This document shows positions 42,968-57,540 of a DNA stretch of 64,000 nt, piece by piece (positions within the stretch are counted from its first letter, which is position 1; every line of letters begins with the position of its first letter). Location of the stretch: NCBI GenBank assembly GCA_963713495.1, contig CAVQLX010000018.1, positions 58,563-122,562 of the forward strand, written 5' to 3'. Both the position numbers and the translations under genes were made by a program. Under the pieces are notes generated by a model, which had not been told where the DNA came from, did no database searches, and was given only the letters and a program-made list of their open reading frames with translations. Origin of the DNA: an uncultured delta proteobacterium. GTDB taxonomy: Bacteria; Desulfobacterota; Binatia; DP-6.

Positions 42968-44345
42968 ATGGCGGCACGAGTCGAAGCGGCGCGTCGCGGC
43001 TTGCCGGTGGTCGCGCTCGTCGGGCGGCCCAATGCCGGGAAGTCGACGCTGTTCAACCGCATCGTGCGGGCGCATCGCGCGATCGTCGACGACGCGCCGG
43101 GCGTCACGCGCGACCGCGTCGTGGCGCGGGCCGAGCACGCGGGCCGGGCCTTCCTGTGCGTCGACACGGGCGGCTTCCTCGCGGACACGCCGCGCGATGC
43201 CGCAACCCTCGCGGCGCGCGTGCGCGCGCAGGCGCTCGCGGCCGTCGCCGAGGCGGACTGCGTCGTCTGCGTCCTCGATGGGGCGGCCGGCCTCGCCCCG
43301 GCCGACCGCGACACGATCCGCCTGCTGTCGCGAGCCGGCAAGCCCGTGTTCTTCGCCGTCAACAAGATCGATACGGCCGGGCGCGAGCCGAACGTGGCGG
43401 AGTTCTACGCCGGCGGCACGGATCGTCTCTTCGCCGTCTCGGCCGCCCACGGCCGGGGCATGCGCGCGCTCCTCGACGCCGTGGTGGCGCGGCTCCCCCG
43501 CGTGCCCGCGGCCAGCGACGAGCCCGCCGGAACCCGGCTGGCGCTGCTGGGACGGCCGAACGTGGGCAAGTCATCCCTGCTGAACCGGCTGCTCGGAACG
43601 GAGCACGCGCTGGTGGCGCCGGAAGCGGGCACGACGCGGGACGCGGTGGACACGCCGGTCCGCATCGACGGGCGCCCGTTCGTGCTCATCGACACCGCAG
43701 GCATCCGGCGTCGCGGCCGGGGCAATGACGCGCTCGAGCGCCACGGCGCCGTGCGGGCGCTGGGCGTGATCGAGCGCAGCGATCTGGTGCTCTTCGTCCT
43801 GGACGCCACCGACGGGATGACCGACCAGGACGCGCGCCTCGTCGGGCGGGCGTGGGATGCGGGACGCGGCCTCATCGTCCTGGCGAACAAGTGGGACCTC
43901 ACGTCGGGACCGCAGCGCGACGTGCGGACGTTCCGGCGCGCGCTGCAGGCGGGTCGCCCGGGCTTCGCCGCGCTCCCCGTCCTGTGCGTGTCGGCACGGA
44001 CGGGGGAGGGGCTCGAGGGACTCTTCGGGATCCTGGCGGACGTCGAGCGTGGCTACCGTGCGACGATGCCGACGCCGGCGCTGAACCGCGCGCTCCGGGC
44101 GGCCGTCGACGCCCACGCCCCGCCCAGCCCGGAGGGGCGGCCAGTCCGCCTCCTCTATGCCACGCAGACCGCCAGCGCGCCCCCGGAGGTGACCGTGTTC
44201 GCGAGCGCGCCGGAGCAAGTTCCCGAGGCGTACACGCGCTACCTGCGCACGCGCTTCGGCGAGGCCTTCGGCCTGGTGGGCGTCCCGCTGCGGGTCCGCC
44301 TCCGCCGCGGCGCGAGGCGACCGGTCTCACGGCGCCTCGCGGTAG
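42968..44345 (+). CDS. der: ribosome-associated GTPase Der/EngA; 3' end uncertain
   Basis: Two G domains (GRPNAGKSTLFN/DTGG/NKID and GRPNVGKSSLLN/DTAG/NKWD) and a KH-like end ...YLRTRFGEAFGLVGVPLRVRLRR. The in-frame reading has no stop until 44968 and runs antisense through the next gene. I place the end at TAG 44343-44345 in the +1 frame, assuming one more indel near 44290-44340. Confidence 0.8.
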
Positions 44346-44587
44346 CGGCGCGCGAGCTCGACGTAGTTCGCAGCCGAAGTCCGCAAGCGCTCGAGCTCGG
44401 CGTCGTTGATCTCGCGCGTGCGCTTCGCAGGACTTCCGAGTACGAACGAGCGGGGAGGGACCACCGTGCCGGGCGTGACCAGCGCGCCCGCGCCGACGAG
44501 GCTCTCGGTCCCGATCACCGCGCCGTCGAGCACCAGCGCTCCCATCCCGATCAGGCAGCCGTCCTCGACCGTGCAGCCGTGGAGCAC
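44327..44587 (-). pseudogene. gamma-carbonic anhydrase-like (LbH) protein, C-terminal half
   Basis: (V)LHGCTVEDGCLIGMGALVLDGAVIGTESLVGAGALVTPGTVVPPRSFVLGSPAKRTREINDAELERL... It continues exactly from ...TVGHNAV at 54049-54303. Confidence 0.8.
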
Positions 44588-44957
44588 GGTGAACGGCGCG
44601 ATTTTGAACCCCCTGTCGTGTCCCCGGGGCCGGCAGTTCCACTGGGAAGGCCCCGTGGACCACCACGCGGTCGGCGTGCACGTCGACGTGTTCGACCAGG
44701 ACGCGGAGCAGGGCCTGGCGGGCGGCGTGGTCATGGCGATCGAGCCCTTCCCGGATGTCCTGGCAGTACTGGAGGACTGCGTCGAGGCGGGACGCGTCGA
44801 CGGAGCCCTGGGCAACCTGGGCGTCAGCCTGGTGCAGCTCTGCAAAGAAGGGCAAATACCCCCTTCGTGCCGCTTGTCGGCCGCCCTCGTGGCCCTCATC
44901 ATGCAACGCACCCGAGGGGCTCGCGTCGCGCGGGAGTGTGTGAGGGCCTACCTGGGT
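44588..44957 (-). pseudogene. probable C-terminal remnant of a recombinase (large-serine-recombinase-like tail)
   Basis: The frame reads ...RRGYLPFFAELHQADAQVAQGSVDASRLDAVLQYCQDIREGLDRHDHAARQALLRVLVEHVDVHADRVVVHGAFPVE and runs out into the junction. It resembles the coiled-coil plus terminal strand of serine integrases from memory only. The N-terminal catalytic part is absent. Confidence 0.3.
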
Positions 44958-45018
44958 TCAGCCGCTAGCTCACGCGCACCGTGTGGCGCATCAAGGCTTC
45001 CCGAGTCTCATCACCGGT

Positions 45019-45320
45019 TCAGGTACGCGCCGACCGCTGCATCGTCCACATGCGGAACCGCGGTTTCGTCGGCACCGTCTCGTCGGTGATCACGCGGTAG
45101 CCGGCGCTCTCGTAGAGCCTCACGTTGCGCTGCTTGTCGGTCTCCAGGTAACAGGCACGCCCTCGGCGTCGGCGCGTGCGCACAGTCGCGCGAGCAGCCT
45201 CAGCGGGAACAGCTCGAGCTTCGTGATCCCGGCGTCGGTGAAGAGGATCTTCGACGGGTTCGAGCTCGCGACCTCGCGGCCCCCGATCGAAAGCGTGATG
45301 TGCTCCCGCTTGGCCGGCAC
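45019..45320 (-). pseudogene. mosaic of gene fragments: LigD-polymerase-like N-terminus joined to a GNAT acetyltransferase C-terminus (itself frameshifted)
   Basis: REVASSNPSKILFTDAGITKLEL resembles the LigD/PrimPol N-terminal motif. It is followed by LLARLCARADAEGVP and then, in another frame, CYLETDKQRNVRLYESAGYRVITDETVPTKPRFRMWTMQRSA (GNAT C-terminus), with a stop at 45019-45021. Confidence 0.4.
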
Positions 45321-45498
45321 GCGCGAATCATAGCGCAGGGATTTGCTGCGGGAACCGAGGTCGCGAAACCGATGCGCGCCACCGGCGAGCGCCGACGGGC
45401 GGTTGCCCAGGGCGGGGCAGGTCGGCGTCGCGCGCTATCTGGACGCCGCGCTGCGACCGACGCCGCCGCTCCACCGGGAGTAACGCGCCGGGAACGGG

Positions 45499-46170
45499 TC
45501 AGTACACCCAGGGCACGAGCCGCCACGTCCGCCGGCGGTAGTCGGCGTACTGGTCGCCGAACTCGGAGGCGAGCAGCCCTTCCTCGGCCCGGATGCGCGC
45601 CAGGAGGAGCCACACGGAGGGCAGCACGAGCAACAGCCCTGCGACACTCCGGAAGACCAGGGCCCAGCCGATACTCGCCACGAGGTAGCCCAGGTAGCTG
45701 GGGTTCCTGATCCAGCGATACACGCCGTCGGTGACCAGCCGGTGACCCTCCTGGATGGCCACGAGGCCGCTGAAGCGGCGGCCGAGCACGAACATCGGCC
45801 ACACCCGGAGCGCACCGCCGGCGACGAGGAGCGTCAGCCCGAACCAGCGAACCGCGTCGCCATCGATCACCCAGTGATCGCGGCGGTCGAGGAAGGGGAG
45901 GAGCCAGATCGTCAGTACGGCGAACACCAGGCCGACCGGTATGATCCACAGTTCCCCGATGTCGGCGCGCCGGCCGCTGCTCAGATTGAAGGGGGAGAAG
46001 GCGGCCACCAGGGTCAAGACCAGGCCTGCCACGAGGGCGCCCCTGCGGGCCGGGTTGGCGAGCAACCCCGACCAGCTCCCCCAGGCGCGCGCCATCAGGG
46101 CGTAGCACAGCAGGGTGACGACGAGCAGGCCCGTCGCGACCAGCAAGCGCGACAGGACGGCGCGTACCAT
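45499..46170 (-). CDS. isoprenylcysteine carboxyl methyltransferase (ICMT)/phospholipid methyltransferase family membrane protein
   Basis: 223 aa with multiple TM helices. C-terminal signature is HRLVTDGVYRWIRNPSYLGYLV...RIRAEEGLLASEFGDQYADYRRRTWRLVP. Confidence 0.8.
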   Translation of the reverse strand: MVRAVLSRLLVATGLLVVTLLCYALMARAWGSWSGLLANPARRGALVAGLVLTLVAAFSPFNLSSGRRADIGELWIIPVGLVFAVLTIWLLPFLDRRDHWVIDGDAVRWFGLTLLVAGGALRVWPMFVLGRRFSGLVAIQEGHRLVTDGVYRWIRNPSYLGYLVASIGWALVFRSVAGLLLVLPSVWLLLARIRAEEGLLASEFGDQYADYRRRTWRLVPWVY

Positions 46171-46216
46171 GCCGCACGAGGTACCAGGCGAACGCCCGCG
46201 CGGAACCCGCGGGCGC

Positions 46217-46555
46217 CTACTCGAACTTCGCCGTCAGGTGCAACGCGAAGCAGCGGGCGCCGTTCGTCACCGTCAGCGTGGTGTCGGTCAGCCCGCCGTT
46301 CACGGCGACCACGTCGAACCAGCCGTGGGCGCGCGCGTCGAGCCTGAAGACGCCGGCCCTCCTTCGGCGCTTCGTGCCGATAGAGCGGACAATGCGGCTA
46401 TTCGCCCTTCGCCCCGCGAGCCATTCGCCCGGCGCGTCTACCAGCCCGCCGCCCTTCCGTAACGACGGCACGACGGGGTGGCTTCGCCGCGCCGGAAGGG
46501 CGGCGAAGGAGCTCGGATCGTGGTCCACCTCCGAACAAGTCGGCGAATCACTCAC
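46217..46555 (-). CDS. hypothetical protein (weak)
   Basis: Only the C-terminal third (GVFRLDARAHGWFDVVAVNGGLTDTTLTVTNGARCFALHLTAKFE) looks protein-like. No family recognised. Confidence 0.2.
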   Translation of the reverse strand: MSDSPTCSEVDHDPSSFAALPARRSHPVVPSLRKGGGLVDAPGEWLAGRRANSRIVRSIGTKRRRRAGVFRLDARAHGWFDVVAVNGGLTDTTLTVTNGARCFALHLTAKFE

Positions 46556-46765
46556 TCATTCCCGCTGTACACGCCTTCCAAGAGAGCCCTAAAGTGACCG
46601 GCGGCGATTTCGCGCGGCGACGACACGTGCTCGAACGGCGTCGGTGAACTTCGGGATGCTAGGGAGTCGCATGTATCGTCGGGCTCAAACTGCCCGTCTT
46701 GTTGGACGGCAATCCGTTCGGTGCCTTGCCCAGATCCCCAGCTTGCTGGAAGCCGGCCGATCGAT

Positions 46766-49152
46766 ATGATCGCCCCCCCCGTCAGGCTACGGTGGGTGGT
46801 CGCGGCAGTCTGTTTCGTCGTTCTCGCCCTTGCGGCCACCGGACCAGCACTCTTCGCGAGTCGCTCCCTCGGGCCGGAGAGCTCCCTTGATTTCGATCTG
46901 CTCTATTCCCTGGGCGATCGGCCACGGTCGCCGCCCATCGATCGGTCGCGCACCGTGTACGACATGCCCCGTGACTTCGCCGCGGCGGAGGGTTTCCGCG
47001 CCGGTCGTTTCGACCTCTGGAATCCGCGCGTCGGCTTGGGCATGCCCCTCTGGGCCGAGGGCGGGGCGCCGCTCTTTCCCCTGAAGCTCCCGTTTTACCT
47101 TGCTCCGTCGCGGCGCACTTACGATTGGGCCGCCGCGCTGCGGCTCGTCGTGGCGGGGATGGGCGCGTATCTGCTAGCCCGACACCGCGGTCTCACCTTC
47201 CTCCCAGCGCTCGCGGCTGGGGCCCTCTTCGAGCTGTCGGGTGCGACGATCGCGATGCTGCCCTTCGGCGAGGGCGCGCCCCCTTCGCTATTGCCCTGGG
47301 TTCTCCTCGGCGCCCAGGGGATCGCGCGCGAGCGGCGGTTGGCCGCAGCAGCGGGCACTGGGATCGCGCTCGGGGTCACGGCGAATAGCGGGCATCCGAT
47401 GCTGGCTCTCGTTGTCTTCGCGGGATTCGGCGCAGCCATCGCGGGCCACGCCTTCGTCGCGTGGAGACGGCCCCGTGCCGTCCTGGCCATCGGCGCGCTC
47501 GGATGCGTGGCCCTGGTGCTCGGGCTCGCGATCGGCGCTCCGGCGGCGCTGCCGACACTCGAAGCCTGGGGCGTCGGGCGTCTCTACAAGACCACCGACA
47601 AGTTCGAATGGATGGTGTCGTTCAACCTCCTCCAGGTCTGGAACACACTGCCCATTGCCCTTTTCTCGCCCGGCCTACTTGTCCCCATTCAGGCCAATCT
47701 GACGAGCCTATTCCCGCAAGCCGTCGCTCCCGCTGTGGGGGTGCTTGGATTCGTCCTGGCGTTGGCAGGTATCGTCGTGGGTGGCCTCGATGCGCCCCTC
47801 GTCGCGGTTGCGCTTCTCGGCGTCGGCCTGATGTTCGCTCCACCCGGGCTCGGGTGGGTGCGCATGATCCCCCCGCTGAAGTTCATCTACCCGATGTACT
47901 GCGCGGTGCTGATCAGCCTACCTCTAGCCCAAGCCAGCGGGCGAGGCGTGGCGGTTCTCTCGACCCCTCGCGCGCGTCGTGCAGTACTGACCGCACTCGC
48001 CCTGGTTCTCGCCGGCGCGCTGTGCCTGACTCGCGTGAACGACTTCGGTGACAAGTCCCTTTTCTACTTCCCCTTGCGCAGCGTTCTCATGAGGTTGCTC
48101 TCCCAGCCCGGAGGCCAGCTCCGGCTCGCTCTACCCTTGGCCGTCGCTACGGCCGTGGCGGCATGGATCACCGCCCGGACCAGTGTTACCCGGCGCGGCG
48201 CTGCACTGGTTGTCGCGCTCGCCGCCTGCGAACTGCTCGCCACAGTTCCGCCGACGGTCTGGTGGTCGGACTCCAAGGTGCTCGCGTCACCGCCCTCGCC
48301 CGCGGTCCGCTTCCTACAGGAGCGTCTCGCAGACGGCGGGTCTCGAATGCTCGGGGCCAACGAGTGGATCGGACAACCCGCCACGCCGTCGCTCTTCGGC
48401 TTAGCGGATATCCGTGCGATATCGGCTCTCCCCATCGAGCGGTACGTGCGGTTTCTGGAGGCCATCGAGCCAAAGCTCAGCTGGTTCTACATGCAGGCTC
48501 CCGGACGGGTCACTCGCCACCCGCTTCTAGACGTGGCCGCCGTGCGATATGTCATCGAGCCGGGAAGCCCCGAGCCGCCCGTCACTCTCGACGGGGACCC
48601 GGCCGTCCGGCGCATCTACCGTGATTGGGCCGTGGGTATCTACGAAAACACCGCGGCGCTGCCACGAGCCCGCATCGTCCACTCTGCGGCTGCCGTGATC
48701 GATGCCACGGAGGCGTTCACCCGCCTGAGGGAAGCAGCCGCCGCAGGCTCCCATGCCGCGTTGGTCGGCCTGGCGGATCGGATTGTGGTCGAGCCGAGCG
48801 CCGACGACAACCCCCGCCGGTCGTGCCGGAGGTGACTCCACCGCCGGGTGAACAGGTGACGATCGTGGAAGCCGGCGATCCCGACCAGGTCGAGTTGATG
48901 GCGTCCCTGGTGAACCCGGGTTGGGTCGTCCTCGCCGATACCTTCTATCCAAGCTGGATCGCCACGATTGACGGCGTGGCAGCGACGATCTATCCCGCCG
49001 ATCTGCTGTTCCGGGCTGTGTTCGTGCCCGCGGGCACGCACCGCATCGTCTTCCGCTACCAGCCGCGTGCCCTCAGGCTCGGCCTGGCGCTCGCAGTCGT
49101 GGGGCTCGCAGTAAGCACCGTATTGATCGCGCGCGGGAGGGCGAGTCGCTAG
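46766..49152 (+). CDS. YfhO-like polytopic membrane protein (putative glycosyltransferase), apparent -1 frameshift
   Basis: Many TM helices. The C-terminal beta domain ...VTIVEAGDPDQVELMASLVNPGWVVLADTFYPSWIATIDGVAATIYPADLLFRAVFVPAGTHRIVFRYQP is in the frame of ORF 48625. The frames join if the C5 run at 48811-48815 is read as C6 (DDNPPPVVPEV). ATG 46766 is preferred over GTG 46721. Confidence 0.65.
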
Positions 49153-50250
49153 GCCGCGTCGGGCAGATACGACGAAAAGGGCGGTTTCAGGCCGCGTGCT
49201 TGGCGAGGGGTCACGGCCAGCCGCTTGGTGTGATAGCGCGTGAGGCGGTCCGTGTTGAGGCGATCGAAGTAGCCGCCGCCCAGCTCGCGATACGACTGAC
49301 CGTCGCGCAGTACGTGGTAGGCGATGCCCAGGATGCTGTGCGCGACCGCGACGATGGCCTTCTTGTCTCCGCGGCGCTTGACGAGCCGGCCGTAGTGGGC
49401 GGCGAAGGTAGCAGTCGCGTTTGCACACCGCGGCGCGGGCGCTCTCGACGAGCGCCGCGCGGAGCGTCCGGTTGGCCCGGCGGGTGCGGCCACTCAGGCG
49501 CTTGCCCGCACTCTCGTGGTTGCCCGGGCAGAGGCCCGCCCATGAGGCCGCATGCCCGGCGGTCGGGAACCGCGTCATGTCGCAACCGAGTTCGGCCACG
49601 ATCACCTCCGCCGTGCGCCGGGCGACACCCGGAATCGTGTCGAGCCGGGCGAGCTGCGCCGCGTGTGCGGCCGTGAGCGTCTCGACCTGCCGGTCGTACG
49701 CGGTGATCGCGCGGTCGAGGAACTCGATGTGGCGCATGAGCTGGTCGAGCAGAAACCGGTGATGGGCGGTGACGCGGCCGGTGAGCGCCTCCCCGAGCGC
49801 GGCGCGCTTCCGGCGCAGGCTCCGCTTGGCGAGGTCCGCCAGCTGCGCGGGAGTGTGCTCGCCGGCGATCAGCGCTTTTGATCATGGCGCGCGCCGAGAC
49901 CCCGAGGATCTCGGTGGCGACGCTCGCGAGCTTGATGTTCGCCGTCTCAAGGACCTTCTGCAGGCGATTGCCTCCCGCGCCCGGTCCTCGACCAAGCGCT
50001 TGCGTACCGGACCACATCGCGGAGACTCGCGCTGCGCCGCGGGGGCACGAAACTCCGCCGGAGCAGGCCGAGTTCGAGCAGCTGGCCGAGCCACTCGCTG
50101 TCGCGCACATCCGTCTTGCGCCCCGGCACCATCTTGACGTGCTGCGCATACCAGGGCGAGCTCTCAGCTCCCCTCGAGGATGTTGTAGACCGGCCGCGAG
50201 TAAGGTGATCTTCCCGCTCCGTCGCTGCGGCTCGCGCGGGGGCCGGCGAA
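49149..50250 (-). mobile_element. IS110-family transposase remnant: 5'-truncated and broken into at least four frames
   Basis: Recognisable segments are PVYNILEG; AQHVKMVPGRKTDVRDSEWLGQLLELGLLRRSFVPP; NRLQKVLETANIKLASVATEILG; HHRFLLDQLMRHIEFLDRAI..LDTIPGVARRTAEVIVAELG; and YGRLVKRRGDKKAIVAVAHSILGIAYHVLRDGQSY. The roughly 70 N-terminal DEDD residues are missing. Confidence 0.75.
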
Positions 50251-50325
50251 TCATCTGTCGTTGAGGCCAGCCGCCGACGGCCGACGTTGCCTCCCGCCCC
50301 GGGCCTTGGGTATAGGCTCCGCCAC

Positions 50326-51624
50326 GTGAGCACGCTCGCGCGGTCGCTGCGCATCGGCCGAGAGCTGGCGCGCATCGGCAGCGCCATCGTCGCCGAGCGC
50401 GTGGAGACGGGATACGTCTTCAACCCGCTCCTCAACCCCCTCCTCCGTCAAGCACGCGAATGGCCGTATCCACTCTACCAGCGCCTCCGCGAGCGCGACC
50501 CGATCCACCGCAGCCGTGCCATACGCGGCTGGTTCCTCTTCCGCCACGCCGACTGCCTCGCCGTCCTGCGCGACGGTCGGTTCTCCGCCGACGACCGGAA
50601 CTACGCCGGCTACGCCCAGCAGCGCGCGTGGGAGATCGCCGACGGGCTCGCGGACGCGAATCAGCCCGACGAGCCCCCGATGCTGCGTCGCGATCCGCCC
50701 GACCACACGCGGCTCCGGAAGCTCGTGTCGAAGGCGTTCACTCCACGGGCGCTCGAGCAGCTCCGTCCCCGCGTCGAGGAGCTGGCCGACCGGCTGCTGA
50801 CGCCGCTCGCGCGCCGCGGCGAGTTCGACGTCATTCGCGACTTCGCGGTGCCGTTCCCGGTGACGATCATCGCCGAGATGCTCGGCATCCCGGCGCGCGA
50901 CTTCGCGACCTTCAAGCGCTGGTCGGACCATCTGGTCGGCTTTCTCGACCCGCTCGCCTCCCCCGGCCCCAAGGTGCTGCGGAAGACGATCGACGAGTTC
51001 GACGGCTACATGTCCCGGCTCGCCGAGGAGCGCCGCCGGGAGCCGGCCGAAGACCTCCTGACCGCGCTCGTCCAGGCCGAGGAGCAGGGGCAGCGTCTCT
51101 CCGCGCAGGAGCTGCAGGGTACGCTCGCGCTCATCCTGGCCGCGGGCAACGAGACGACCACGAACCTGATCGGCAACGGCCTCGTCGCGCTGCTTCGTCA
51201 CCCCGATCAGCTGGCGTGGCTCCGCGACGACCCCGGTATCGCCGAGCGCGCGGTCGAGGAGCTGCTGCGCTGGGACTCCCCCGTCCAGCTGACGATGCGC
51301 ATCCCGACCGAGGCCATCGACTTCGACGGCGTGCACTTCGAGAAGCACCAGGCCGTGGTGACCGTGCTCGGCGCGGCCAACCATGACCCCGAGGCGTTCG
51401 ACCGCCCCGACGTCCTCCACCTCGATCGGGAGCCAAACGAGCACCTGGCCTTCGGGCAGGGCATTCACTTCTGCCTCGGCGCGCAGCTCGCGCGCCTCGA
51501 GGGACAGGTGGCGCTGCGCGAGCTCGGCCGCCGTTTTCCGGACCTCCGACTCGCGGCCGACCGCCCGCGCTGGCGTCGGCTCACGTTCCTCCGCGGGGTG
51601 GAGGCGCTGCCCGTCCGCGTGTGA
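50326..51624 (+). CDS. cytochrome P450
   Basis: AGNETT (I-helix), EELLRW (ExxR) and heme loop FGQGIHFCLGAQLARLE. GTG 50326 is preferred; the track start is TTG 50287. Confidence 0.9.
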   Translation: MSTLARSLRIGRELARIGSAIVAERVETGYVFNPLLNPLLRQAREWPYPLYQRLRERDPIHRSRAIRGWFLFRHADCLAVLRDGRFSADDRNYAGYAQQRAWEIADGLADANQPDEPPMLRRDPPDHTRLRKLVSKAFTPRALEQLRPRVEELADRLLTPLARRGEFDVIRDFAVPFPVTIIAEMLGIPARDFATFKRWSDHLVGFLDPLASPGPKVLRKTIDEFDGYMSRLAEERRREPAEDLLTALVQAEEQGQRLSAQELQGTLALILAAGNETTTNLIGNGLVALLRHPDQLAWLRDDPGIAERAVEELLRWDSPVQLTMRIPTEAIDFDGVHFEKHQAVVTVLGAANHDPEAFDRPDVLHLDREPNEHLAFGQGIHFCLGAQLARLEGQVALRELGRRFPDLRLAADRPRWRRLTFLRGVEALPVRV

Positions 51625-51949
51625 CGAAGCCGCTTCAGGTCCGCGGGCCGGCAACCACCCCGACGTGGTCGCTCGCGAAGACGTCGCCAGCGGGTTCGTC
51701 GAGAACCATGCGCGCCCGCTCGACTCGGCCGCGGCCCTTGCGTCGGGCAGCCGACGCTGACGGCCTGCACCATGCCATGCTGCGCGGCGACCGGTGCGAC
51801 GGCCAGCGTGGCCGCGACCAGAAATGCCGCGACCGCTGCGACGACGCCTATCTCTCTCGGGTTCCGTTCATGCTCTGTGCTCCTTTGCTGAGTAGAGGTA
51901 GCGGAACGGCGCGAGGACGCGCATGGGGCGAAACGGAAAGAGCGATCCG

Positions 51950-52294
51950 TTACCGCTGCTGGAACCTGTCCCGGGGGTCCGCGGCGAAGCACGTGGACGT
52001 CCCCTCCTGACACAGGACAACGTAGGTCGTGCGCTGGTTGCAGCCCGCGACGCCCACCGTGTACTCGACGCGGTTCAGCCCCATCATCCACGGCCCCTGC
52101 ACGGCGGGCTGGATGTAGTCTTGCGACAGCACGGTGCCGGTCGCCGTGGGGCAGTTCAGGTCGAAGCGCCCGCGTTCCAGCGCCGTCGCCACCGCGGCGG
52201 GCTGCCGGCTGGCAAGCTGCTGCGACTGCGTCGCGCAGGCCCCCGCGATCGCCACCACGGCGCAAAGTGTCGCGAGGTTCCATGACTTCACCAT
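51950..52294 (-). CDS. small lipoprotein, unknown function
   Basis: RBS AGGAGGG. MVKSWNLATLCAVVAIAGAC has a lipobox-like IAGAC. 114 aa with four further Cys. Confidence 0.55.
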   Translation of the reverse strand: MVKSWNLATLCAVVAIAGACATQSQQLASRQPAAVATALERGRFDLNCPTATGTVLSQDYIQPAVQGPWMMGLNRVEYTVGVAGCNQRTTYVVLCQEGTSTCFAADPRDRFQQR

Positions 52295-52518
52295 CGGGTT
52301 CCCTCCTGAGCCGCACCGATAGCCCCGGCCTCCCGGAACGTCTTGCCATTTTGCGCTAGGGGCGACGGTGACCGGCGGTCGTGTATCATTGTCGCCGCGC
52401 GCATCACACCACCGGCCTTGCTTCGGCGGCCGTGGTGCGCGACGAGCGGCGAGACGATGGACCCGGCGGCGGTGCTACTGGAGCGGCTGAATCCTCCCGC
52501 GTCTTCTCGCAACGTCCA

Positions 52519-52803
52519 TCAGCCGCCGCGCCGGTGGCGCTGGTACGCCGCATGTCGCCCCCGTGCCATGATCCTCGCGATCTCGCAGCGCTCGCTGTAG
52601 ACGTGCGGCGACAGCCCATGCTGCGCGCCGACCTCGGCGAACGCCGCGGCGAGTTCGTCCTCCGCCGCGGCACGCTCCTCGCTGCCGGCGACGTGCTCGA
52701 TCATGGAGCGCAGCAGGGGGTCGTACTGCACCTGATCCTCAGTGAAGCCTCGCCGCTCGCCCGCAGCGCGCACGCGCTCGGTCAGGCTGGTTGACGTACT
52801 CAT
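52519..52803 (-). CDS. hypothetical 94-aa protein
   Basis: The reading MSTSTSLTERVRAAGERRGFTEDQVQYDPLLRSMIEHVAGSEERAAAEDELAAAFAEV... is in frame with, but unlike, the terminase fragment upstream. No family recognised. Confidence 0.25.
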   Translation of the reverse strand: MSTSTSLTERVRAAGERRGFTEDQVQYDPLLRSMIEHVAGSEERAAAEDELAAAFAEVGAQHGLSPHVYSERCEIARIMARGRHAAYQRHRRGG

Positions 52804-53396
52804 GTGCGGCACTGTGACCATGGCGGGACGCACGGCGTTCACGATCTCGTGGTCGGGATTGCTGCTGTCCTCGCTGCGCCAGAAACAGACCTCGTCCAGC
52901 ACGCAGCCGACCACGGTGTAGCCGCGTAGCGCCCGCCAGCTCGCGGTGTGGATCTCGATGCGCACGCCGGTCGACAGCTCGACGCTGTCCGCGCTGCGGT
53001 CCACCACCAGGGCGGCGAGCATCGGGGTCTCGTCCAGCAGCCCCGAGATGTACTGCATGCAGGTGCGGGCCTGACGCCGGTCGGCCGCCACCACGGGCAG
53101 CGTGCCGACCTCGCCCACGGACAGCACGTCGGCGTAGTCGCGGAAGGCGGCGAGGTAGATGGCGATCACGCTCGCCAGCCGCGACTTGCCCGCCCTGCGA
53201 CCCGCGGTGCACCACGCCTCCCGGGCCTGCGTCGTCGGAGGGTCCTGACGGTTCGTGCAGCTGCGGTAGAGCGCGAGGCCGGCCGGGACAGGGAGAGACC
53301 GAACACGGCTCGACAGAAGGTGCGCCACGGGTTCCACTCCGTACCGAAATGGTGGCCGAAGATCGCCGGGTCATCCAGCGCGTCGAGCAGCGTCAC
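52804..53396 (-). pseudogene. phage terminase large subunit, N-terminal ATPase fragment (frameshifted and truncated)
   Basis: LLDALDDPAIFGHHFGTEWNPWRTFCRAVFGLSLS is in one frame. PAGLALYRSCTNRQDPP..GRRAGKSRLASVIAIYLA (Walker A)..VGCVLDEVCFW (Walker B)..NPDHEIVNAVRPAM is in the next. The shift is at GGG 53285-53287. The nuclease half is absent. Confidence 0.55.
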
Positions 53397-53928
53397 GAGG
53401 AACCCGACCCCCTTTGCGCGCTTGGGACGCTTTCAACGCTAGCCCCTTGTTCCTGTGAACCGCCGTGGTCAGACGCCGGGTCGGCTGGCGCGGATTCGGG
53501 GGAACCCGCGGCGGACTGCTCCGCACCGTTGCGGGCGATGTACGCGGCCAAGTCCTCGGGCGGTGCCAGCCGACGCTCCAGGACAGGGTCCACCAGCGCC
53601 AGCATGAGCCTGGCGATGTGCCGCTCGAGGCGACCCAGGTCATGCACGACCTGCCACGCGCGATGGGAGCGCCGATCGACCCAGGGACGAGGCATCGTGG
53701 ACAGGTACGCCGTGGCGTCGCTGTGCCGGATCTTCGCGAAGGTCAGCAGGTCGAGGATCACCTGCTCCCCCCCGTCGGGTCGTTCTGGAGGTGGTCAGCA
53801 ACCAACTGGTCACGCAGCGTCGCGATGGAGCGCTGCTGCGTCGGCGTGGGGGCCGGTGGCGGACCCGTACGGCCACGGTAGAGGCCAGCCTGGCGGTAGG
53901 GGCGCAGGCGTCGGTGTATCGAGGCCAT
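53393..53928 (-). pseudogene. hypothetical phage-type protein upstream of terminase (small-terminase position), frameshifted in a C7 run
   Basis: ATG 53928 (MASIHRRLRPYRQAGLYRGRTG...HLQNDPTGG) joins ..EQVILDLLTFAKIRHSDATAYLS... if the C7 run at 53767-53773 is C8. Its stop overlaps the terminase GTG (GTGA). Confidence 0.35.
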
Positions 53929-54048
53929 CCCGCGCCCGACTATGGCGGGATCGCCGTCTGTCGTCTCAGGCGTGCAGAGGCATGCGCCCCTTGGGCTTCA
54001 GCGGGCAGCGAAGGACGTACGCGAGGGGTGTGGAATCGAGCACAATGC

Positions 54049-54303
54049 TACCGCGTTGTGGCCGACGGTCACGCCGTCGCCGACGATCGTCGGGAAGCGG
54101 CCCCGCACCGCGTGGATCGTCGCGTTGTCCTGGACGTTGCTGCGCGCCCCGATGCGGACGTGATGCACGTCGGCGCGCACGACGGTGTGGAACCACAGGC
54201 TCGAGGCGGGGCCAATGACCACGTCGCCGACGACGACCGCAAGCTCGGGCACGTAGGCGGTCGCGTCGATCCGCGGCCGGTGGTCGCCGAACGCCGCGAT
54301 CAT
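54049..54303 (-). pseudogene. gamma-carbonic anhydrase-like (LbH) protein, N-terminal half
   Basis: MIAAFGDHRPRIDATAYVPELAVVVGDVVIGPASSLWFHTVVRADVHHVRIGARSNVQDNATIHAVRGRFPTIVGDGVTVGHNAV, then unrelated ALCSIPHPSRTSFAAR and a stop inside the insertion. Confidence 0.8.
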
Positions 54304-55643: not shown

Positions 55644-55672
55644 TTGCGCAACAGATCCCGTTGCGCTAGGTT
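55644..55672 (+). promoter_or_regulatory. candidate promoter/operator of the toxin-antitoxin operon (TTGCGCAA palindrome, TTGCGC-N17-TAGGTT)
   Basis: TTGCGCAA (self-complementary) and a second TTGCGCTA lie 9 nt apart. The -10-like hexamer ends 5 nt before ATG 55678, which would make the mRNA leaderless or nearly so. Confidence 0.35.
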
Positions 55673-55677
55673 CGGGC

Positions 55678-56010
55678 ATGGCCGTCGCGACCGCCGCCAA
55701 GATTCGCGCGCTCAAGCGCGATTTCCGCACCGGGGCGGCGCTCGCCGATCTGCTCGGGGTGAACCGCTCGCAGGTCACCCGCTGGCTCCGCGGCGCAGGC
55801 ATCGACCCGCTCAACGCCGAGAAGATCGACCTCCTCGAGCTCGTGTGGTCCAACCTGCGCCGCCTCTACGACGGCGACGCCGCACGGTCCTGGCTGTTCG
55901 GGTTGAACCCACATCTCGGCGACCGCCGGCCCATCGACGTCATCCGCACCGGTCGCGTGGAGGAGCTCATGCGTGCCATCCGCGCCGAGCGCGCGGACGC
56001 GTTCGCGTGA
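55678..56010 (+). CDS. Xre-family antitoxin with DUF2384-like C-domain (MbcA/ParS type)
   Basis: HTH LADLLGVNRSQVTRWLRG, then WLFGLNPHLGDRRPIDVIRTGRVEELMRAI. Confidence 0.8.
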   Translation: MAVATAAKIRALKRDFRTGAALADLLGVNRSQVTRWLRGAGIDPLNAEKIDLLELVWSNLRRLYDGDAARSWLFGLNPHLGDRRPIDVIRTGRVEELMRAIRAERADAFA

Positions 56011-56558
56011 TCCTGCACCGCTGCTTCGCATGGGAGCGGCGCGCCGCGCCGGACACGCCCGGCGGGGCGCTGTGGTTCGCCCGTCCGTTCCAGGGCGATG
56101 GGCGGCACGACAACCCGGACCACTATGGGTGCCTGTACGTGGCGGAGCTGGCCGTGTCGGCGGTGGTGGAGCAGCTCGCGCGCTTCAGGGGGAACGTCCT
56201 GGTGCCGGGGATGCTGCGACGCCGGGGGCTGCCGCTGGCCCTCGCCACGCTCGAGCTCGACGATCGCGCGCGGTTGATCGACCTCGACAGCCCCGAGGTG
56301 CTGGCGGCGCGCCGGCTGCGGCCGTCGCTGGTCGCCACCCGCCGGCGCGAGCGCACGCAGCCGCAGGCGCTCGCCATCCATGCGGAGGGTGCGGACGGCC
56401 TGCGCTGGTGGTCGACGTTCGAGTCGCTCTGGATGAACCTGACGCTCTTCGACCGGGCGGCGGGGCGGCTCCGCGTGAGCGATGTCCGCGTGCTCGGGCG
56501 CGACCACCGCGCGCTCGGCGAAGCGCTCGAGCTGCTCGGCATTGCGCCCGGAAGGTGA
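56007..56558 (+). CDS. RES-domain toxin (MbcT/ParT type)
   Basis: GTGA overlap with the antitoxin. Contains GRHDNPDHYGCLYVAE (R..E of RES) and a later WWSTFES region. 183 aa. Confidence 0.8.
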   Translation: MILHRCFAWERRAAPDTPGGALWFARPFQGDGRHDNPDHYGCLYVAELAVSAVVEQLARFRGNVLVPGMLRRRGLPLALATLELDDRARLIDLDSPEVLAARRLRPSLVATRRRERTQPQALAIHAEGADGLRWWSTFESLWMNLTLFDRAAGRLRVSDVRVLGRDHRALGEALELLGIAPGR

Positions 56559-56630: not shown

Positions 56631-57461
56631 GTGGGCGATCGCGAGCCTCGGGAGCCAGAGCCTGCGTACCGGCTCGCTGCGGCCGGGCGCGAAGAGGCCG
56701 AAGACCAGCGGTTGGGCCTCCTGGAAAGCATCTTCGATCCGGGCTCGCGCCGACGCCGGGCCCTGGTGCAGCCCGGTTGGCGGTGCCTCGAGATCGGCGC
56801 CGGGCGCGGATCGATGGCCGTCTGGTTGGCTCGGCAGGTCGGCGAGCACGGTCAGGTCGTCGCGACCGACATCGACGTGAACTACTTGAAGCGGCTCGAT
56901 GTCCCGAACCTCGAGGTTCGCCGCCACGACATCCTCGAGGACTCGCTGGATGTCCTCGGCCCGGGGTCGTTCGACCTGGTCTGCTCGCGGCTCATGTTGT
57001 TCTGGCTCGTCGGCCGCCAGGAAGAAGCCATCCGGCGCATGGCGGAGTGCCTGCGACCAGGCGGCTGGCTCGTCGACGAAGACGGTGACTGGGGTACCGT
57101 CGTGCCCGTCGATCCGGCCCATCCTCAATACGAGCGCTACAACAGGGTCTGGCGCAAAGGCGAATGGTGGGCAGACCGCGGATACGACCCCGCCTTCGGA
57201 CGTAAGCTGCCGGCGCTATTCGAGCGCTGCGGCCTGCGGAACATCCACCACGAGGCCACGGCGGAGGTGGTGCGCGGAACCAGCACGTGGGGACGATGGT
57301 GGCTTCAGACGCTCGAGGTGATGCGTGACACCGACCGGGGCGCCAACCCGAGCCAGGCGCGCGAGGAAGAGTACGCGGTTCTCACGGCCCCGTGGACCGA
57401 TCCCGCCTTCTGGTTCCTCAGCGCGTTGCTGCACGGCTGCTCGGGCCAGCGCCTGGTCTAA
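56631..57461 (+). CDS. class I SAM-dependent methyltransferase
   Basis: Motif I CLEIGAGRGSMAVWLA, acidic loop VVATDID, and post-I LRPGGWLV. The start is GTG 56631, or TTG 56595 as in the track. Confidence 0.8.
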   Translation: MGDREPREPEPAYRLAAAGREEAEDQRLGLLESIFDPGSRRRRALVQPGWRCLEIGAGRGSMAVWLARQVGEHGQVVATDIDVNYLKRLDVPNLEVRRHDILEDSLDVLGPGSFDLVCSRLMLFWLVGRQEEAIRRMAECLRPGGWLVDEDGDWGTVVPVDPAHPQYERYNRVWRKGEWWADRGYDPAFGRKLPALFERCGLRNIHHEATAEVVRGTSTWGRWWLQTLEVMRDTDRGANPSQAREEEYAVLTAPWTDPAFWFLSALLHGCSGQRLV

Positions 57462-57540
57462 TCCGCGCCGTCGCGCATCGGATGTCGCGTCGCTTGCCCG
57501 GCGTGCGACCGCCTGCTAGTTGACGGCATGGCGCTCGTGA

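Follow-up and report, generated by a model that had tools for sequence, protein, structure and literature searches.

A decayed integrative element in a gamma-carbonic-anhydrase-like gene, with an attachment site that appears to lie inside its own large serine recombinase gene

The window analysed here, i.e. the whole stretch of 64,000 nucleotides from contig CAVQLX010000018.1 of an uncultured delta proteobacterium, contains a gene predicted to encode a protein of the gamma-carbonic anhydrase (gamma-CA)/LbH family that is split in two by an island of 9.5 kb, one end of which holds the remnant of a large serine recombinase (LSR) gene (Table 1). On the minus strand, the N half of the split gene runs from an ATG at 54303 to 54050 with the translation MIAAFGDH...GDGVTVGHNAV, past which its frame enters unrelated sequence (ALCSIPHPSRTSFAAR) and meets a stop, and the C half runs from 44587 to 44327 with the translation (V)LHGCTVEDG...RYREAP and a stop. 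Fused at the GT dinucleotide that they have in common, the two halves give 513 nt, i.e. 170 amino acids and a stop codon. Hexapeptide repeats were identified in the fused protein (Pfam Hexapep, E 4e-16), and its best NCBIfam match was the gamma-CA model NF050158, a full-length match of 191.8 bits, which is under the cut-off of 250 bits. Repeats and profile together point to a predicted member of the gamma-CA/LbH family (YrdA, PaaY, CaiE-like). Histidines 64, 82 and 87 show an 18/5 spacing, which we take to be that of gamma-CA metal ligands. The codons of the two histidines that are five residues apart, which would by this spacing be metal ligands, enclose codon 85 (GHNA-V-LHGC), where the gene is broken. 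A scan with one genome per species yielded 500 relatives of the fusion, the best of which (L001, 86%; L002, 82%; L003, 68%) aligned contiguously over residues 1-169, the alignment to L001 and L002 being gapless across the fusion joint. Once joined, the flanks of the window are also collinear with L001 and L002 for about 12 kb.

An intact and nearly identical protein, P0151, was found by a protein search with the N half. It has 170 amino acids, of which 169 are identical to the fusion, the sole difference being F/L. Its JGI contig, L088, matches the window at 55202-54050 (97.7%) and at 44587-42873 (98.0%), and the only letters covered by both matches are the 2 nt GT (AC on the plus strand). With this overlap of GT only, the insert comprises positions 44588-54049, i.e. 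9462 bp, without any target duplication. An earlier note on this DNA, made from the sequence alone, had described a gene cleanly split by an insertion of 9461 bp, with only AC (GT on the gene strand) common to both junctions, and had suggested that relatives with the intact gene could define attB. The clean split stands, as the halves align contiguously to the intact homologues of L001-L003 and to P0151, and the empty site of L088 confirms the common dinucleotide; the insertion is real, its size being 9462 and not 9461 bp. An empty attB is thereby available from a strain that is about 98% identical to that of the window.

Contig ends from soil run X7 also read straight through the empty site. 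The occupied form, for its part, was recovered in L087, a noisy contig of 9935 bp from a different ENA sample, which covers window positions 54373-44424 at 98.6% and includes both junctions. The C junction is identical in L087 and the window, and recurs in L085 and in short-read Logan contigs. Since L087 spans both junctions, the occupied form is not an assembly chimera. No terminal direct or inverted repeats were found at the insert ends. LSR cores must be non-palindromic, which GT is, and the comparison with L088 shows both marks of a conservative exchange, namely a 2-bp non-palindromic core and the lack of a target-site duplication.

A frame of 106 amino acids reads into the left junction, and its 44845-44588 part is the tail of an LSR. 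No model in Pfam, PHROGs or NCBIfam matched this tail frame. An exhaustive HMMER search with the tail, comprising 1.8 billion proteins, returned 23 proteins, five of which are 509-575 amino acids long and were aligned at residues ~426-510 (E 3e-8 to 2e-4). All five long matches carry the Resolvase, Recombinase and Zn_ribbon_recom domains and are thus LSRs. Other parts of an LSR were not found anywhere in the 64-kb window by tblastn with six LSRs, i.e. about 430 N-terminal residues, including the catalytic, recombinase and zinc-ribbon domains, are absent from it. Homology to LSRs starts at 44843-44849, and soil contigs match the window from 44845 upward, with unrelated sequence before 44845; taken together, this makes position 44845 a rearrangement breakpoint that truncates the LSR gene. 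To judge from its sequence, the LSR copy in the window is a pseudogene remnant and not a functional recombinase. The tail had no tblastn match in INPHARED phages or PLSDB plasmids, and neither the tail nor the tail alignment found anything in IMG/VR.

Since the LSR frame remains open up to the core, without a stop in the window, the opposite end of the insert was read in the same frame. Past the core-containing CGT codon, positions 54049-53969 read as SIVLDSTPLAYVLRCPLKPKGRMPLHA (27 codons), followed by TGA at 53968-53966. This reading could be compared with P0007, a metagenomic LSR fragment of 145 amino acids that had been found with the tail alone and that extends as ...NWPQS-R-ENVVNSSPLPYVVRCPLNPKRPMHAEA. 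The P' peptide of the window is identical to the contiguous C-terminus of P0007 at 16 of 28 positions (E 2e-9), and the joined LSR sequence of the window aligns with P0007 from end to end (E 3e-24). In L095, the P' arm reads as RENVLDITPLPYVVRCALNARRPMHADA in the LSR frame, and other LSRs in the match list end with related motifs (EPLRYLLRVPV, YPMRYVVRVSV). As the two insert ends restore one LSR frame that matches P0007, the reconstructed attP is independently validated, and the ends were once contiguous. As this frame crosses the core, attP would have lain within the LSR gene, and integration would detach the last 27 codons. That the LSR reading frame spans attP throughout this clade is, on such protein-level support, to which the evidence for the design is confined, probable. 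The differences between the P' peptides of the window and L095, counted by eye, are distributed 9/7/9 over the three codon positions, which gives no signal of selection, and we therefore claim no purifying selection on this peptide.

What the arrangement could do is a more tentative matter. Only the excised circle would encode a full-length LSR with the conserved 27-residue C-terminal element (..PLxYV.RCPL..), while the integrated copy would encode a tail-swapped protein that runs out of frame into the host gene. Detachment of the tail might then be a built-in switch of activity, stability or direction, and the metal-ligand stretch of gamma-CA genes a landing site in a broad range of hosts. 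We regard this as a speculative proposal, somewhat doubtful as it stands, according to which integration-competent enzyme would come from the circle only.

The GT in codon 85 was found to be broken repeatedly. A protein search with the C half gave short proteins starting at or just before the V of VLHGC, the contigs of which were all broken immediately 5' of GT(G/T)CTxCACGG, by differing sequences. Counting this species and its relatives, different elements interrupt at least five further contigs at this same GT. On the C side, such breaks were found in L081/82 (81% amino acid identity), L083 (88%) and L084 (95%), in the 238-kb contig L085 (98.7% flank identity), in L086 (98.6% flank identity) and in P0147. 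An LSR C-terminus again lies upstream of the break in L082, L083 and L084 (L083 against P0020, E 4e-10; L082 against P0007, E 3e-8), and the LSR register is common to these three and the window, i.e. xxC directly followed by GT, the last base before GT being codon base 1, with no stop. Beside the core, a stretch of 25-30 nt is of related sequence in the window, L084, L085 and two metagenome variants, with the pattern GGTTCAAAATCG.GCCG....CC directly before the GT. L095 belongs to a species whose flanks are 84% identical; on the N side, it has a like element end at the same GT, and compared with the window, its P' arm is 70% and the next 440 nt are 76% identical. Site specificity is thus seen in L081-L086, P0147 and L095, which share the break at GT and have different element ends.

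In P0147, a Logan contig, an LSR-like tail (..IVSPTRAEVRGVVPVEVESPRPGKG..) lies in frame with the gamma-CA C half, and the two are called as one protein of 124 amino acids; this fusion reflects either a different crossover register or an indel. Regarding the att sequences themselves, the gene is comparatively well conserved around attB, as the 42-nt stretch centred on attB ranks 52nd of 468, and the most conserved 42-nt stretch of the gene starts at the crossover. The attB has the form GACCGT-N13-GT-N13-ACGGTC, with a 6-bp inverted block at +/-14-19, yet only 8 of 30 dyad positions match overall. In the reconstructed attP, 14 of 30 dyad positions match in register, the best of 13 offsets (p 0.012 by shuffling, 0.04 against genomic background).

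Among conspecific soil strains, at least four alleles were found at the site, namely an empty one, the window type, an L085/L090 type and an L086 type. Strains that are about 98% identical in the flanks have either the empty site (L088 and X7) or the island of the window (L087). In the island of L085 and run X2, positions 44590-46418 are replaced by 4.2 kb encoding PMT, TPR and NHL proteins and the P arm is short of 4 nt, and L085 shares a block of 3.4 kb with the window, whereas the island of L086 carries a tyrosinase/VWA protein. In L089 (8627-9623) and L090 (1291-3355), also from ~98% identical strains, the break follows GDGVTVG and lies 11 nt upstream of the GT, at the equivalent of window position 54062, and the open reading frame (ORF) of 551 amino acids beyond this break has no match in Pfam or PADLOC. 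Run X2 contains this N-side break together with the C side of the L085 type, and these may form the opposite ends of a single remodelled island from which attL has been deleted. Another conspecific allele, L096 (2170-2586), keeps 10 nt past the GT (GTGCTCCACGGC) and then diverges, the contig ending soon after; it represents a third breakpoint within 22 nt. The locus is a variable island that was seeded by LSR integration and later remodelled.

It is highly probable, in our judgment, that an LSR-borne circular element integrated into the gamma-CA-like gene and was later immobilised; the recombination chemistry, the phage origin and the order of the decay events are what we infer in the following outline. 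A circular element with an LSR gene, probably a temperate phage or a phage-derived island, would have entered the gamma-CA-like gene, its LSR recombining attP with an attB that has the GT in codon 85 at its centre. Exchange across the 2-bp core would have been conservative and so have left no duplication. With attP in the 3' end of the LSR gene, the LSR body would have come to lie at attR (the 44588 side) and its last 27 codons at attL (the 54049 side). A rearrangement at about 44845 would have deprived the LSR gene of its first ~430 codons and brought an unrelated block with GNAT and ICMT sequences up to the tail, the terminase gene would have lost its nuclease half, and an IS110 copy would have entered and then decayed. 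Exchange of cargo blocks would have given conspecific strains with different islands or none.

Entry by serine-recombinase action followed by decay had also been the proposal of the earlier note, and it is supported by the empty site, the GT, the LSR tail, the terminase fragment, the reuse of the site and the frame through attP. The recombinase-like tail that it saw reading outward into the left junction has turned out to be a genuine LSR C-terminus, and the attP reconstruction that it called for holds, the LSR frame being continuous and its last 27 residues matching a contiguous homologue. Decay, likewise, is evident in the loss of ~430 LSR residues, in a terminase reduced to its ATPase part and in the IS110 remnant inside the island. 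The window copy is an ordinary decayed integrative element whose unusual feature is a recombinase gene split by its own site, and it is the clade, more than the dead copy in the window, that would be characterised by this splitting.

Several points weigh against this account. The insert holds a single clearly phage-derived gene fragment, with which a prophage and another LSR-borne island are both compatible, and none of the retrieved contigs has a full-length LSR next to the GT site. A free attP was not seen as DNA, and pattern scans of viral and metagenome contigs gave nothing relevant: the P-arm pattern GGTTSARAATCGNGCCG, which is too loose, had 195 matches in metagenome and viral contigs, 0 of them with the expected context, and the P' pattern had three matches in viral contigs, which were random AT-rich sequence. 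The dyad symmetry of attP is of modest significance only. Two further breaks, one of them 11 nt upstream of the GT (L089/L090) and the other 10 nt downstream (L096), go back to other events in the same stretch, and some of the frameshifts taken as signs of decay could be errors of long-read assembly. Lastly, a 2-bp overlap alone is by our estimate expected by chance in roughly a fifth of clean insertions, and the argument therefore rests on the recurrence of the site and on the continuity of the LSR frame.

Four other explanations have to be set against an LSR-borne element that was integrated and then immobilised. One is a working genetic switch, in which, under some condition, a recombinase encoded elsewhere in the genome would cut out the 9.5-kb element and so make the gamma-CA gene whole again, as in skin/sigK, SPbeta/spsM and A118/comK. 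It would agree with the precise att junctions, with gene halves that are 100% and 85/86 identical to the intact allele, and with the coexistence of empty and occupied alleles in ~98% identical strains, but the cognate LSR is without its catalytic, recombinase and zinc-ribbon domains, the P arm of L085 has a 4-nt deletion and the attL side of L089/L090 is gone, a pattern that fits drift and not maintenance; we hold such a switch to be very unlikely. Slightly less credit still is due to the idea that the LSR tail is incidental cargo, the insertion being the work of the internal IS110 (bridge-RNA) transposase, of a tyrosine integrase or of illegitimate recombination. An IS110 remnant does lie within the insert, and IS110 elements also insert without long duplications. 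This remnant is however internal, 4 kb from either end, for which reason IS110 was discarded as the agent of the insertion. The searches turned up neither a tyrosine integrase in the insert nor a direct repeat flanking it. The insert ends do join into one LSR reading frame, and in other contigs independent LSR tails border directly on this GT. That the gene halves were joined to foreign sequence by mis-assembly might be suspected from indel-type long-read errors in the window, e.g. a missing T at 44304, but with the whole insert and both junctions spanned in another sample (L087), and the C junction recurring in other assemblies, an assembly chimera is already refuted for practical purposes.

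More credible than these, although still improbable, is a single ancient integration that was vertically inherited, the occupied alleles differing by later replacement of cargo and the empty ones having arisen by excision or homologous replacement, with no hot spot involved. The related right end of L095, with 70-76% identity at the same GT in a species with 84% flank identity, is in line with this, as is the 3.4-kb block common to L085 and the window. The P arms and LSR tails of the window, L084, L086 and P0147, on the other hand, differ strongly, while the flanks are 95-98% identical, and separate integrations of members of the LSR clade are an easier explanation of such different junction ends beside near-identical flanks. 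A single origin and repeated integration are not mutually exclusive histories.

The interior of the island (Table 1) shows a mixed assortment of genes. By scans of the insert with PHROG, Pfam and PADLOC, no phage genes were found beyond the terminase fragment, which itself had one weak tblastn match to a phage terminase, and IMG/VR and INPHARED gave no match beyond one weak terminase match. A further ORF, of 114 amino acids, lies between the P450 gene and the terminase fragment. For the frameshift near 53760 in the gene at the small-terminase position, L087 was too noisy to decide. The GNAT/ICMT block was also found at ~97% on a soil metagenome contig of 3.2 kb, where it has other neighbours on either side; rather than belonging to the original element, it is a movable block. 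The region gave no match to a tRNA or an Rfam family, and none of the defence-system models of PADLOC matched there.

Table 1. Features of the split gene and of the island within it (positions in the window)
Feature	Position	Strand	Evidence or remark
Gamma-CA/LbH gene (predicted), 3' half, codon 85 to stop; B' arm	44327..44587	-	matches intact homologues; 85/86 identity to intact allele
Putative crossover dinucleotide GT at attR (P-B')	44586..44587	-	sole overlap of the two L088 matches
LSR remnant, about 86 codons, corresponding to residues ~430-510; no stop before the junction; last ~26 nt form the putative P arm GGGGGTTCAAAATCGCGCCGTTCACC	44588..44845	-	HMMER, tblastn
Block of GNAT fragment and ICMT gene; other neighbours in soil metagenomes	44845..46463	.	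left edge 44845 is the LSR-truncating breakpoint
ICMT/PEMT-family membrane methyltransferase	45499..46170	-	profile matches
Membrane protein of 704 amino acids, YfhO-like (weak match, in the L085 orthologue)	46721..48835	+	block at 96.4% in island variant L085
IS110-family transposase remnant over three frames	48640..50435	-	Transposase_20; NF033542 positions 191-302; DEDD_Tnp_IS110 weak
Cytochrome P450 cargo gene	50287..51624	+	profile matches
Terminase large-subunit fragment, ATPase part only	52522..53337	-	phrog_9 E 1e-9, phrog_2 1e-7, profile positions ~220-390 of ~810
Gene at small-terminase position, about 180 codons, frameshifted near 53760; intact single ORF in L095	53396..53928	-	no family match
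Putative P' arm of former attP; LSR-frame reading SIVLDSTPLAYVLRCPLKPKGRMPLHA and TGA, apparently the detached last 27 LSR codons	53966..54049	-	P0007 C-terminus, L095
Putative crossover dinucleotide GT at attL (B-P')	54050..54051	-	sole overlap of the two L088 matches
Gamma-CA/LbH gene (predicted), 5' half, codons 1-84 and GT of codon 85; B arm of attL	54050..54303	-	100% identity to P0151 residues 1-85

Some further differences were seen in the flanks. At 44280-44410, the frame of der (EngA) has no stop in the window and remains open to 44968. In contigs of three soil runs, 44304 is followed by a single additional T, with which der would end normally, and Der has 479-480 amino acids in L086 and L088; the open frame is probably an assembly indel error, or else a recent frameshift. 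Compared with the window, L089 has an extra ~1.4 kb with a sulfatase gene between the equivalents of 60582 and 60586 and is without 168 nt of window 57302-57469. These differences, at ~60584 and 57302-57469, are small indel polymorphisms in the core flank. A pair of Xre_MbcA_ParS_C antitoxin and RES toxin genes at 55644-56558 (L089: 6373-7253) adjoins an amidohydrolase gene and is conserved in L089 and L096.

The 9.5-kb island explains a broken housekeeping-type gene and a variable region in this genome. For an uncharacterised LSR clade of high-GC soil bacteria, it also provides an attB/attP pair and a target gene, and LSRs with known sites are sought as tools for genome engineering. If the detached tail controls direction, the arrangement would moreover bear on how LSR directionality is set.

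Elements with serine integrases that split genes are known from other bacteria, e.g. A118/phi10403S in comK of Listeria, and SPbeta in spsM and skin in sigK of Bacillus. With these, the island shares the position of an LSR-type element inside a conserved protein-coding gene, the 2-bp non-palindromic core, the lack of a duplication and the recombinase gene at one end. Unlike in these, the recombinase of the window is reduced to ~86 and 27 codons, and would thus allow no self-excision, and the host belongs to an uncultured high-GC soil lineage, the nearest metagenome-assembled genomes of which are labelled Thermodesulfobacteriota, delta proteobacterium or Binatia. No gamma-CA/LbH gene was found as the target of an LSR element in the literature searched. 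As an immobilised remnant that has lost integrase and packaging functions and has been taken over by insertion sequences and cargo, the island resembles 'grounded' or cryptic prophages, from which it differs in nothing essential.

An LSR gene cut by its own attP was not found described in the literature searched, and the closest parallel to the predicted arrangement is in archaea. In tyrosine integrases of the SSV1 type, attP lies inside the int gene, which is partitioned on integration. The LSR gene would likewise contain its own attP and lie in two pieces at the two element ends after integration, but the enzyme is a serine and not a tyrosine recombinase and belongs to a different domain of life, and only the last 27 codons are detached, whereas the cut in SSV1 lies further into the int gene than 27 codons from its end. 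A split integrase gene is described for archaeal tyrosine recombinases in the part of PMC8371274 available to us.

The detached piece can also be compared with elements that control direction. A 2021 title cited in PMC12286644 and PMC11722253 links the extreme C-terminus of SprA to direction control, and in the accessible portion of PMC12286644, LSR C-terminal extensions are proposed to block the site of the recombination directionality factor. The piece detached in the window would similarly be the extreme LSR C-terminus, i.e. the region tied to direction control, but the C-terminal element of SprA stays attached in both states, whereas here it would be detached on integration. In mycobacteriophage BPs, the immunity of which depends on integration, the repressor gene contains attP, as stated in an excerpt of PMC4557955. 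There, as would be the case here, integration alters the C-terminus of a phage regulatory protein by way of an attP in the coding sequence; in BPs, however, the gene concerned is that of a repressor and the integrase is a tyrosine recombinase, and in the island described here it would be that of the serine recombinase itself.

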